Source: Escherichia coli
GTDB taxonomy: Bacteria > Pseudomonadota > Gammaproteobacteria > Enterobacterales > Enterobacteriaceae
Length of the DNA: 64,000 nucleotides
Strand: one strand, 5' to 3'
Assembly: GCF_030013205.1 (NCBI RefSeq)
Contig: NZ_CP122648.1
Shown in pieces: positions 16,976-20,156 of the stretch. The position numbers were made by a program, and so were the translations under genes. How positions within the stretch are numbered: position 1 is the stretch's first letter; every line of letters begins with the position of its first letter. Below the pieces are notes generated by a model. That model saw only the letters and a list, made by a program, of their open reading frames with translations, was not told the origin of the DNA and did not search any database.

Positions 16976-17330
16976 TCCCATCTGCACAAGCGATAACTCG
17001 CTTTGCCCAGAGGATGCACTCGCATCCTCTTTTCGCTCAAATATCAACCAGATTTATCATTTTGCTCTTAAGCGCAGCATTCTAATCTGAACTGGTTATT
17101 CATCTGCGGAACCTCATATGAGCGAAGCTCTCGGTATCACTGCATTTTATATATTCATAGCCGCGATTATTGTTGCTGCAGTGCTATACCTTGAACAACG
17201 CTGGTAGCGCCTGGTTTTATTTATTTTCCAGCTCAATAGCAAATTCAGATCAAATCAGCCTCGCAAATCATAGATTCATAACCAATAATGTGCTGTTATG
17301 TATACATGCAAAAACAAGGAGAGAATGCTT

Positions 17331-17759
17331 ATGTACAAGACAATCATCATGCCAGTGGATGTTTTCGAAATGGAATTGAGCGACAAAGCTGTTCGCCACG
17401 CTGAATTCCTCGCCCAGGATGACGGAGTTATTCATCTACTTCACGTACTACCCGGGTCAGCCAGCCTGAGCCTGCACCGTTTTGCCGCTGATGTGCGTCG
17501 TTTTGAAGAGCATCTGCAACATGAAGCAGAAGAACGTCTGCAAACGATGGTCAGCCACTTCACCATCGATCCTTCCCGCATTAAGCAACATGTCCGTTTT
17601 GGTAGCGTGCGGGATGAAGTCAATGAGTTGGCAGAAGAACTGGGGGCTGATGTTGTAGTTATCGGTTCGCGCAACCCTTCGATTTCGACCCATCTGTTAG
17701 GTTCTAACGCCTCGAGCGTGATCCGCCACGCCAATCTGCCGGTGCTGGTTGTGCGTTAA
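17331..17759 (+). CDS. uspG: universal stress protein G
   Basis: 142 aa from internal ATG ([14 protein letters not shown]...); matches UspG. Confidence 0.94.
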
Positions 17760-17775
17760 TTGCCAGAATAAATAT

Positions 17776-17812
17776 CCCGCCCTGCCCGGAGCCATCCCGG
17801 CGGGGCTTTTTA
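17776..17812 (+). terminator. uspG intrinsic terminator
   Basis: GC-rich hairpin (cccgccctgcccggagccatcccggcggggc) followed by ttttt. Confidence 0.6.
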
Positions 17813-17814
17813 TT

Positions 17815-18525
17815 GCCATAATAAATATCCTCCGGCATAGCCGGAGGTTTTTCAAATGCGCCTATAAGGCTCTCTTACCAGCCGCGCCCTAACAGGCGCA
17901 CACGATCTGACATTTGCATCCAACTTCGTTACTTACGGCCCGTAAACGGGCTGCCCGGATAGGGAATCGATAACTGCTCTCCCATTTTATCCTCTTCAAG
18001 CTGGTGCTTTATGTAATCCTGTATCTTCGCCGTGTTCTTACCCACTGTATCGACGTAGTACCCTCTGCACCAGAACTCCCTGTTCCTGTATTTGAATTTC
18101 AAATCACCAAACTGCTCGTAAAGCATCAGACTGCTTTTCCCTTTCAGATATCCCATAAACCCGGATACGCTCATTTTGGGCGGGATCTCCACAAGCATAT
18201 GGATATGATCTGCACAGCATTCAGCTTCCAGAATCCGTACGCTTTTCCACTCACACAGCTTTCTCAAAATACTGCCTATTGCTCTACGCTTCTCTCTGTA
18301 GAACACCTGTCTTCGGTATTTTGGCGCAAAAACTATGTGATATTTACAGTTCCATCGGGTGTGCGCTAAGCTCTTTTCGTTCCCCATTGGGACCCCCTTT
18401 TGATTTCTTGTTTGACACTTGCAGTTGCCAGACCGCAAGGTGTTTTAACAAATCAAAAGGGGTTTTAATAACTGGCTCAAAGCTGAAAGCTTTCCGGAAC
18501 CCCCAGCCTAGCTGGGGGTTTTCTG
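17815..18525 (-). mobile_element. IS200-like insertion sequence (IS200/IS605 family); boundaries approximate
   Basis: about 710 bp of extra DNA between the uspG and ahpF terminators; it encodes a 152-aa Y1 (HUH) transposase and has the IS200 left-end hairpin (aacccccagcctagctgggggtt) plus an RBS-proximal structured leader. Confidence 0.75.
17929..18387 (-). CDS. tnpA: IS200 transposase TnpA (Y1 HUH transposase)
   Basis: 152 aa from internal ATG (MGNEKSLAHTRWNCKYHIVFAPKYRR... with the HxH motif in ADHIHML); near-identical to Salmonella IS200 TnpA from memory. Confidence 0.93.
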   Translation of the reverse strand: MGNEKSLAHTRWNCKYHIVFAPKYRRQVFYREKRRAIGSILRKLCEWKSVRILEAECCADHIHMLVEIPPKMSVSGFMGYLKGKSSLMLYEQFGDLKFKYRNREFWCRGYYVDTVGKNTAKIQDYIKHQLEEDKMGEQLSIPYPGSPFTGRK

Positions 18526-18532
18526 TGCACAA

Positions 18533-18562
18533 AAAAGCCGCCAGGTTTGACCCCGGCGGCTA
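18533..18562 (-). terminator. ahpF intrinsic terminator
   Basis: on the minus strand, gccgccggggtcaaacctggcggc followed by tttttt. Confidence 0.7.
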
Positions 18563-18590
18563 AGCAATTGCAGGTGAATCTTACTTCTTC

Positions 18591-20156
18591 TTATGCTGTT
18601 TTGGTGCGAATCAGGTAGTCAAAAGCACTCAGAGAGGCTTTGGCACCTTCGCCAGTGGCGATGATGATCTGCTTGTACGGAACCGTTGTACAGTCACCCG
18701 CTGCGAACACGCCTTTCACGTTGGTTTCGCATTTCGCATCAATGATAATCTCGCCCATGCGGTTACGTTCGACTGCGCCTTCGAGCCAGTTGGTGTTCGG
18801 CAGCAGACCAATCTGCACGAAAATACCGGCCAGTTCGATGTTGTGAATATCGCCGCTGACACGATCGCGATATTCCAGACCTACGACTTTGCTACCGTCG
18901 CCTTTCACTTCCGTGGTTTGCGCATTCAGAATAATGTCGACGTTTTTCAGGCTGCGCAGTTTGTCCTGCAGAACCTGGTCGGCTTTCATTTCTGGCGCAA
19001 ATTCCAGCAGCGTTACGTGCTCAACGATACCCGCCAGGTCAATTGCCGCTTCCACGCCGGAGTTACCGCCGCCGATAACCGCTACGCGTTTACCTTTAAA
19101 CAGCGGGCCGTCGCAGTGCGGGCAGTAGGTCACGCCTTTGGTGCGATACTGATCTTCGCCCGGAACGTTCATGTTGCGCCATTTTGCACCGGTCGCCACG
19201 ATAATGCTGCGTGCTTTCAGTACCGCGCCAGAAGCTGTTTCAATCTGATGCAGGCCACCTTCAACCGCTGCCGGGATCAGTTTGCTGGCGCTCTGGCTGT
19301 CGATCACATCAACGTCGTATTCATCAACGTGAACTTTCAGCGCACCTGCCAGTTTCTGGCCTTCGGTCTTCGGTACAGAAATGTAGTTTTCGATATCAAC
19401 GGTATCGAGGATCTGACCACCAAAACGTTCGCCCATCAAACCAGTACGGATACCTTTACGTGCGGAGTAAATTGCTGCCGCTGCACCCGCCGGGCCGGAA
19501 CCGACGATTAATACGTCATAAGCATCACGCTTGTTCAGCTCTTCTGCCGCACGTTTTTCCGCGCCAGTATCAATTTTGGCGACGATTTCAGTCAACGTCA
19601 TGCGACCCTGACCAAACTCTTTCCCGTTTACGAACACTGCCGGAACGCCCATCACGTTGCGATCGGTGATTTCGTTCTGGAAGGTGCCGCCGTCAATTGC
19701 AGTGTGCTTGATGCGCGGGTTCAGTACGCTCATCAGGTTCAGCGCCTGCACCACATCCGGGCAGTTGTGGCAAGAGAGCGAGTAATAGGTTTCGAATTCA
19801 AAATCACCGTCAATATGGCGAATCTGCTCCAGCAGAGACTGCGCTTCTTTCGACGGATGACCACCTGTCCACAGCAACGCCAGTACCAGCGAGGTAAACT
19901 CGTGGCCCAGCGGGGAGCCTGCAAAACGTGGCCCCTGGTTGGAACCTGGCTTGGTGATCAGGAAAGACGGCTTACGCACTGGCAAGCTGTTATCTTCTTT
20001 AAAGGTGACTTTGTCTGACAGTTCTGCGATTTCAGCCAACAGTTCCTTGATTTCTGCCGATTTAGCGCTGTCATCCAGCGTGGCAATTAACTCAACAGGC
20101 TTGGTCAATTTCTCAAGGTAAGCCTTGAGTTGAGTTTTCATATTTGTGTCGAGCAT
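18591..20156 (-). CDS. ahpF: alkyl hydroperoxide reductase subunit F
   Basis: 521 aa from internal ATG ([17 protein letters not shown]...); matches AhpF. Confidence 0.96.

Follow-up and report, generated by a model that had tools for sequence, protein, structure and literature searches.

The window analysed here, a stretch of 64 kb, includes the rna-rnk-uspG / ahpF-ahpC region of Escherichia coli, in which uspG encodes universal stress protein G. The window contains exactly two copies of AATAAATATCC, at 17767-17777 and 17820-17830, both on the plus strand downstream of uspG and 53 nt apart, each preceding a GC-rich hairpin and then a T-run. An earlier, sequence-only reading had described this as two consecutive uspG terminator hairpins, each with the same motif in front, and had suggested either a local duplication linked to a neighbouring IS200 insertion or the subterminal hairpin of the element itself. 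The twin arrangement is real, with both copies, hairpins and T-runs located, and the hairpin ends given at about 17812 and 17856 are close once the T-runs are counted. The description as two uspG terminators is apt for their appearance and wrong for their origin, since only the first hairpin is the native terminator. The features of the locus, including the complete insertion element that separates uspG from ahpF, are collected in Table 1.

Table 1. Features of the uspG-ahpF locus, with positions in the window and the basis of each assignment.
Feature	Position	Strand	Basis
uspG CDS, universal stress protein G	17331..17759	+	Pfam Usp PF00582, E = 2.5e-29; uspG in annotation of identical record NZ_CP062203
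Native AATAAATATCC copy, A-rich tract just 5' of uspG terminator stem	17767..17777	+	Empty-site allele L001
Native uspG intrinsic terminator, hairpin 17779-17806 and CTTTTTATT 17807-17814	17779..17814	+	RNA fold; in all empty sites
Native flank TTTATTGCCAT, first half of second 22-nt copy and 3' flank of IS right end	17809..17819	+	Repeat family D1; empty site
IS200C, complete, 711 bp	17820..18530	-	Empty-site comparison; in-silico deletion; tnpA annotated as IS200C family
Right-end linker and putative cleavage site, ATATTTATT with cleavage after its last base, ends TTATT	17820..17828	-	Invariant terminus; role by IS608 analogy (PMC3201880)
Right-end subterminal hairpin (IP_R), CCTCCGGC-TAT-GCCGGAGG	17829..17847	-	DNA and RNA folds; likeness of left and right ends; conservation
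GAAAAA 5' of right-end hairpin foot, putative guide G_R	17848..17853	-	Conserved GAAAA; role by IS608 analogy
Second, larger imperfect palindrome, tnpA 3' UTR / right-end region	17857..17900	-	Inverted repeat I6, 13-nt arms
tnpA, intact 152-aa Y1 (HUH) transposase	17929..18387	-	Pfam Y1_Tnp PF01797, E = 3.8e-38; ORF list
IS200 left-end RNA structure (STnc490 model), left-end hairpin and tnpA 5' UTR stem-loop	18397..18520	-	Rfam RF01405
Left-end subterminal hairpin (IP_L)	18498..18520	-	Inverted repeat I10; fold -18.7 kcal/mol
Insertion target, ahpF intrinsic terminator hairpin (18536-18561) and T-run TTTTTT abutting IS left end	18531..18561	-	Terminator scan; empty sites
ahpF, co-oriented with tnpA, upstream of IS left end	18591..20156	-	Annotation of identical record; ORF list

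The IS200C insertion and its boundaries

A megablast search of positions 17300-19000 against 5426 complete E. coli genomes recovered the full stretch in 28 genomes only, and nearly all of the others gave matches in two pieces with the span in the record 711 bp shorter. The uninterrupted native allele, carrying both AATAAATATCC and TTTATTGCCAT, is found in about 459 genomes at 99% identity or more, compared with the 28 that have the insertion. Three empty sites, from M21170, a K-12 derivative and an O157:H7 genome, were compared, and each reads ...GGGGCTTTTTATTGCCAT / AAAAAAGCCGCC... (also given as ...GGCGGGGCTTTTTATTGCCAT / AAAAAAGCCGCCAGG..., with the slash at the insertion point), such that the native flank TTTATTGCCAT joins AAAAAAGCC directly. 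In-silico removal of 17820..18530 gives the exact M21170 allele across a junction segment of 260 nt. The insertion is seamless, with zero extra target bases left after the exact 711-bp deletion. Deletions shifted by +1 or +2 nt also restore the M21170 allele, owing to shared A's, while shifts of -1 or +3 fail, leaving a boundary ambiguity of +0 to +2 nt from shared A/T bases. The left end of the element begins at 18530 (GTGCACAGAAAACCCCCAGC...) and the right end closes at 17820 (...GAAAAACCTCCGGCTATGCCGGAGGATATTTATT).

The 711-bp element has the size expected of the small elements of this kind (about 700-711 bp with tnpA only), and tnpA is the single open reading frame with family support inside it, matching the PF01797 profile over its full length (profile positions 2-121 of 121). 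An identical copy is annotated by PGAP as belonging to the IS200C family, and 711-bp copies with 100% identity are present at other E. coli loci. The left end matches the full Rfam RF01405 model (positions 1-124) with 146 bits against a gathering score of 56 (E = 1.5e-31). Two further RNA models scored over the hairpins, Ysr202 (24 bits vs gathering score 315) and anti-hemB (20 bits vs 49.5), and both were set aside as chance matches involving the generic terminator portion of the model only. As in the rest of the IS200 group, the two ends (GTGCACAG... and ...ATATTTATT) do not form a pair of inverted repeats, and there is no target-site duplication. Just internal to the right-end hairpin, the larger palindrome at 17857-17900 is the main feature when the 111-nt right end is folded (-43.3 kcal/mol, z = -3.85); it is kept in IS200F and IS1541, and could have a role in end recognition too.

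E. coli IS200C, Salmonella IS200F and Yersinia IS1541 share the 711-bp size, the lone Y1_Tnp tnpA and the STnc490 left end, and the copy described here agrees with this group in every respect that could be tested, with no difference of substance. The uspG-ahpF spacer is one more insertion site of a standard, intact IS200C, an already known feature.

Two hairpins of different origin

The first hairpin has the properties of an intrinsic terminator of uspG, namely a GC-rich stem and a T-run after the stop codon, conserved within the species. It begins 20 nt past the stop codon, folds as RNA with -22.5 kcal/mol (z = -3.0) and is followed by CTTTTTATT. K-12, O157 and M21170 all have it, the O157 stem differing by changes that preserve pairing. 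The motif in front of it, which reads GGATATTTATT on the minus strand, is AATAAGTATCC in K-12, and the O157 sequence diverges upstream of the hairpin. The first motif and first hairpin are the native uspG terminator, and the K-12 and O157 variants are ordinary polymorphism of the native terminator region.

The second hairpin, CCTCCGGCATAGCCGGAGG (17829-17847), has an 8-bp stem and a 3-nt loop and folds with -15.5 kcal/mol (z = -4.0). Seven of its eight pairs are GC, and it is flanked by T5 on the plus strand (17848-17852) and by AUAUUUAUU on the minus strand, and a terminator scan flags it in both orientations. By sequence it has the layout of an intrinsic terminator, with a GC-rich stem-loop followed by a T-run on the uspG strand. 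It is, however, absent from the empty sites of all three lineages and is therefore no native uspG terminator. Positions 17820..17828 are the AATAAATAT of the second motif copy, and the final CC of the motif sits in the hairpin stem; the second motif, the second hairpin and the T-run together make up the last 33 nt of the right end of the element. Read on the element strand, this end runs GAAAAA, CCTCCGGC TAT GCCGGAGG and ATATTTATT up to the terminus, and what looks like the T-run of a terminator on the plus strand (TTTTTC) is the complement of the GAAAAA.

The conservation of this end was followed beyond the locus. A scan of species-representative genomes found at least 120 stretches that match the 30-nt right terminus exactly, those listed including E. 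albertii, Citrobacter youngae, Erwinia, Tatumella, Edwardsiella, Dickeya, Serratia, Budvicia and Yersinia pestis, with about 65 copies from the last species (IS1541) among the matches listed. In each listed stretch the DNA past ...ATATTTATT is unrelated. Ten E. coli IS200C copies at different loci, which include pheP-ybdG, tkt-prohibitin, wzzB-hisIE, potE-pgm, guaA-yfgI and rplS-yfiB, have the same ends, and overall more than 130 unrelated sites, from no fewer than 10 genera, carry the invariant right terminus. E. coli IS200C, Salmonella IS200F and Yersinia IS1541 agree in every one of their last 34 nt, with the bases just internal to these differing among the three (CATTTG, CATCAG and CATATG, respectively). 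The only right-end variants are decayed or truncated relics (pO157 fragments L136 and L137; L138 and L140, which are without the terminus).

Across IS200C, IS200F and IS1541 no covariation was found within the right-end hairpin, the last 34 nt being invariant, and the structural evidence is confined to the comparison of the hairpins at the two ends of the element. The left-end hairpin, CCCCCAGC-TAG-GCTGGGGG, and the right-end hairpin, CCTCCGGC-TAT-GCCGGAGG, are 78% alike and in the same orientation, and their stems differ at two positions, both compensatory (C-G to T-A; A-T to G-C). GAAAA precedes both the left-end and the right-end hairpin in every species copy examined.

The second of the two suggestions in the sequence-only reading was, thus, borne out: the empty sites lack the second hairpin and the invariant terminus recurs at more than 130 sites, as expected for the subterminal hairpin of the element itself. 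Both of the comparisons that it had proposed gave the same answer, in that the empty site has the first hairpin and is missing the second motif and hairpin, and the IS200 references share the last 34 nt, which places the second hairpin within the element. Its placement of the hairpin beside the right end needs correction, as the hairpin lies inside the element, the right terminus being at 17820. That both hairpins could be native, forming tandem terminators of uspG with the insertion beyond them, would account for their terminator-like form on the plus strand, but this arrangement has practically no probability given that the M21170, K-12 and O157 empty sites carry only the first hairpin and the second moves with the element in other species. 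We conclude with high confidence that the second motif and hairpin are the conserved right end of IS200C, that the hairpin is most likely a site for the Y1 transposase, and that no duplication took place.

Target sites and the proposed working of the right end

The T-run abutting the left end belongs to the ahpF intrinsic terminator, which the terminator scan matches with 10 pairs, 8 of them GC, and which the empty sites also have. The window copy follows GGCGGCTTTTTT, and the junction at the ahpF terminator reads AGCCGCCGGGGTCAAACCTGGCGGCTTTTTT / GTGCACAG. The sequence 5' of the left end was compared in 73 complete, non-tandem copies, and T occupies position -1 in 73/73, -2 in 71/73, -4 in 66/73 and -5 in 73/73. 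The resulting target consensus is TT(T/A)TT directly before the left end, to which the right end's own TTATT also conforms. In 88% of the 73 copies a GC hairpin has its foot 2-12 nt upstream of the left end, compared with 8% of control TTNTT sites and 11% of control TTTTT sites at the same loci and with 1% on the right-end side. In E. coli, the loci compared have a gene in the tnpA orientation upstream of the left end and usually a convergent gene past the right end, an arrangement that uspG-ahpF shares. Tandem copies, in which a right end is followed directly by a left end, occur in Y. pestis. The general association with terminators is not new, as terminator-like sequences have been reported to be most over-represented immediately upstream of IS200/IS605 elements (preprint 10.1101/2025.07.22.666184). 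The association of a hairpin with TT(T/A)TT could reflect either structural targeting or the survival of harmless insertions.

The related element IS608 offers a model for how such an end may work. Its Y1 transposase binds subterminal hairpins on one DNA strand and cleaves some distance away, and the cleavage sites are read not by the protein but by pairing with 4-nt guides located 5' of the hairpin feet (PMC3201880). In IS608 the right cleavage site falls within the element, 10 nt 3' of the right-end hairpin, and insertion takes place 3' of a short target that abuts the left end (PMC3201880). IS200C is inserted between the convergent uspG and ahpF terminators, directly 3' of the ahpF T-run. 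By analogy with IS608, its right-end hairpin would be the subterminal palindrome that the Y1 transposase binds on single-stranded DNA, and the A-run 5' of the hairpin foot would act as a guide, pairing with the T-rich cleavage site TTATT, whose 3' side would be cut 9 nt 3' of the foot. The boundaries, the origin of each copy, the conservation and the target rule are direct observations; we infer the guide role from this likeness to IS608, and transposase binding and cleavage 3' of TTATT both from it and from the exact conservation of hairpin, linker and terminus. If so, the right end resembles a bidirectional terminator on the plus strand (AATAAATAT, hairpin, TTTTT) because its A-run guide is complementary to its T-rich cleavage site. 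The same hairpin may additionally halt uspG read-through into the element. In the literature we found no explicit description of the function of the IS200 right-end hairpin or of a TT(T/A)TT target.

It is possible but doubtful that the right-end hairpin has a mainly transcriptional role and is no transposase site; as a bidirectional terminator, it would end the tnpA mRNA on the minus strand and stop read-through from uspG on the plus strand. The 8-bp stem with 7 GC pairs, the T5 and AUAUUUAUU on its two sides and the scan matches in both orientations are all compatible with such a role, and there is a precedent at the other end of the element, where the IS200 left-end hairpin is a documented bidirectional Rho-independent terminator that protects against impinging transcription (PMC4513863). 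Nevertheless, a terminator has no need of the linker, the terminal TTATT up to the boundary and the 5' GAAAA, all of which are conserved and would be needed for a cis-acting transposition site. The likeness of the left and right hairpins in the same orientation is, likewise, what is expected where one protein reads one strand. The two roles are not mutually exclusive, and an effect of the hairpin on uspG read-through or on the tnpA mRNA is plausible, on the analogy of the left-end hairpin, alongside the transposase-site role that we prefer.

The likeness to IS608 and ISDra2, whose subterminal imperfect palindromes are known as IP_L and IP_R, covers a hairpin close to each end, the two being oriented alike, a short conserved sequence 5' of the hairpin foot (GAAAA in IS200C) that is complementary to T-rich cleavage sites, insertion 3' of a short target, and a right cleavage site within the element about 9-10 nt 3' of the hairpin. 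There are also differences. The hairpins of IS200C are perfect, 8-10 bp long and GC-rich, whereas those of IS608 and ISDra2 are imperfect, and the distances from hairpin foot to putative cleavage site are 12 nt on the left and 9 nt on the right in IS200C, compared with 19 and 10 nt in IS608. The target TT(T/A)TT of IS200C resembles its right cleavage site TTATT, while the corresponding IS608 sequences are TTAC and TCAA. Unlike IS608 and ISDra2, IS200C is without tnpB, and its guide and cleavage roles are proposed by analogy with them.

Two other kinds of intergenic hairpin invite comparison. Like Rho-independent terminators, the second hairpin has a GC-rich stem-loop and a T-run, with an A-tract opposite as in bidirectional terminators; it differs from them in being borne by a transposon and absent from the empty site. 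REP and BIME sequences, GC-rich hairpins that lie between genes and are related to IS200/IS605 ends, are recognised by Y1 HUH enzymes, the TnpA_REP proteins (PMC3333891). The second hairpin differs from these as a single copy at the end of an autonomous insertion sequence, with the sequence of an IS200 right end and no REP/BIME cluster.

The repeated motif and what the locus means

The repeat at the right-end junction is longer than first noted, extending over 22 nt with 20/22 identical positions, from TTAATTGCCAGAATAAATATCC at 17756-17777 to TTTATTGCCATAATAAATATCC at 17809-17830. Taken alone, an exact 11-mer repeat within 100 nt is not unusual, as the window has 7 exact 11-mer pairs no more than 100 nt apart and simulated windows have 2.9 +/- 2.7. 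The 22-mer pair, on the other hand, is the sole one of its kind in the window and has no counterpart in 30 simulated windows. It is a composite, in which the first 11 nt are native in both copies and the last 11 nt of the second copy come from the terminus of the element. In the empty site the two native stretches of the 22-mer are, by eye, already 14/17 alike.

A direct repeat that spans the junction, and that simulated windows lack, is what a duplication of the target site or of flanking DNA during insertion might leave behind, as the sequence-only reading had proposed. The evidence from the locus nevertheless makes such an origin scarcely credible. Removing the 711 bp gives back the empty allele without any surplus base, the two repeat copies sit together on the right-end side instead of flanking the element, and the half that is borne by the element is its invariant terminus at more than 130 other sites. 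The native half is older than the insertion, with the first copy present in the roughly 459 genomes that have no IS at this site, and IS200/IS605 elements generate no target duplications (PMC3333891). Gene conversion after insertion, with the IS copy overwriting the native motif, was considered and rejected, as the AATAAATATCC allele is about 16 times commoner without the element.

With duplication set aside, the question is whether the match between native DNA and the element terminus carries any meaning. We scored 130 unique 120-nt right-end flanks for the terminal GGATATTTATT, with the opposite strand as control. An 11/11 echo was found at the uspG-ahpF locus only and a 10/11 echo at one other flank. 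The remaining flanks mostly scored 6-8 of 11, the same as the opposite-strand control, so that there is no systematic echo near IS200-group right ends in this set. The echo is best read as coincidental, native DNA happening to match the IS terminus, although the match is improbable and the judgement was made after the fact. Speaking against coincidence, the composite 22-mer is statistically unusual. The match was probably aided by a shared grammar, since on the element strand both sequences consist of a GC hairpin that ends in GG and is followed by a T-rich tail.

Alternatively, the echo may owe nothing to chance, with the uspG terminator being either a pseudo-end that recruited the transposase or the relic of a former IS200 right end. 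On the element strand, the uspG terminator consists of a hairpin followed by GGATATTTATT and CTGGCAAT, and the right end of the element is a hairpin followed by GGATATTTATT and, past the terminus, ATGGCAAT; the 11/11 match, with a further 9/11 in the adjoining bases, is improbable a priori. Moreover, sites with a hairpin and TTATT or TTTTT do serve the IS200 group as targets, the group's own right end in tandem copies included. We consider this highly improbable all the same, because none of the 129 other independent flanks has an 11/11 echo, the uspG hairpin is unrelated in sequence to that of the element, and the known target recognition in the family uses just 4-5 nt 5' of the cleavage point (PMC3201880). 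The mismatch in the K-12 motif and the divergence of O157 upstream of the hairpin likewise look like ordinary native polymorphism, and the relic form was rejected outright, with a stem unrelated to the IS hairpin and a region that varies as native DNA does. A more general proposal, that IS200-group transposases recognise intrinsic terminators as right-end mimics, beyond the pairing of a 4-5 nt guide, and that the uspG mimic helped to recruit the element before it inserted at the ahpF T-run, is in our view very unlikely; if it were true, the echo would record how the target was chosen and would be no coincidence.

For annotation, the finding means that the second "terminator" downstream of uspG is to be labelled as the right end of IS200C (17820..18530), and neither as part of uspG nor as a duplication caused by the insertion. 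The case also illustrates why the ends of IS200-group elements resemble bidirectional terminators, with a putative A-run guide, a GC hairpin and a putative T-rich cleavage site following one another on the element strand. Of some wider interest is the target rule, which bears on how the "dormant" IS200 picks its sites or survives at them.

The repeat around the uspG terminator

The direct repeat that spans the IS200C boundary is partly older than the insertion, as the empty site of strain M21170 (L001) also carries an imperfect native direct repeat, TTAATTGCCAGAATAAA and TTTATTGCCATAAAAAA, on both sides of the uspG terminator hairpin, and this native repeat supplies half of the 22-mer. A weaker version is found in K-12, and none in the O157 allele. 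The native repeat is probably a chance occurrence in AT-rich DNA. In the O157:H7 empty site (L004 640-700, compared with window 17760-17815), the sequence diverges strongly from the uspG stop codon to the terminator stem, within which the substitutions preserve pairing (GCCGCCCTGCCTGG...CCGGCAGGGC). Approximately 260 genomes match this uspG 3' region at 80-90% identity.

Coordinates of repeats, hairpins and element remnants in the window and the compared loci
Feature	Position	Strand	Details
Native imperfect repeat copies	window 17756-17772 and 17809-17825; L001 656-672 and 709-725		14/17 match, by eye
Second, larger imperfect palindrome	window 17857-17900	(-)	13-nt arms, 18-nt spacer; located between tnpA stop codon and right-end hairpin
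Rfam STnc490 match	window 18397-18520	(-)	tnpA-sense strand, beginning at left-end hairpin
Intrinsic-terminator-like hairpin and T-run, 5' flank of IS left end	window 18531-18561	(-)	similar setting in most 5' flanks of L007-L134
Truncated IS200 right-end relics, ~140 bp	L136 301-441; L137 301-434		pO157-type plasmids; truncated by IS3-family element

Placement of IS200-group elements

IS200-group elements, including IS200C, IS1541 and relatives, almost always lie directly 3' of a GC hairpin and T-run resembling an intrinsic terminator. In the 5' flanks of loci L007-L134, TT(T/A)TT is the consensus abutting the left end, and a hairpin was present upstream in 88% of 73 copies, compared with 8-11% of control TTNTT/TTTTT sites. 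Such placement is compatible with either targeting or survival, and it was partly anticipated by a recent preprint on terminator-like sequences upstream of IS200/IS605 elements (10.1101/2025.07.22.666184).

In Yersinia pestis NCTC5923, IS1541 copies stand head-to-tail in tandem, with the right end (...GGATATTTATT) joined straight to the left end GTGCCCAG (L019 307-1046, L020/L022, L065). The right end of IS1541 itself matches the target consensus of the element, and it appears to have been used as a target in the tandem copies; alternatively, these arrays represent fixed right-end/left-end junctions.

Structures at the element ends

The fold of the IS200C right end is dominated by the larger palindrome, which is kept in IS200F and IS1541 and could be an mRNA 3'-end stabiliser or a component of the right end. 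In the plasmid relics, the right-end hairpin has decayed (ACTCCAGCTATACCGGAAG), yet the terminus ...ATTTATT is intact; such relics are common on virulence plasmids of O157, O111 and O121. At the left end, the Rfam STnc490 model matches the tnpA-sense strand; STnc490/art200 is described in the literature as antisense to the tnpA 5' UTR.

Copy variants and mobility

One IS1541 copy in NCTC5923 (L025) measures 729 bp end to end, as opposed to 710, and therefore contains a 19-bp internal insertion or duplication. IS200 is usually portrayed as a nearly dormant element. 711-bp copies with 100% identity to the IS200C of the window, at up to 35 places per genome, reside at differing chromosomal loci of different strains, such as pheP-ybdG (L125) and tkt-prohibitin (L126), which suggests recent mobility of IS200C.
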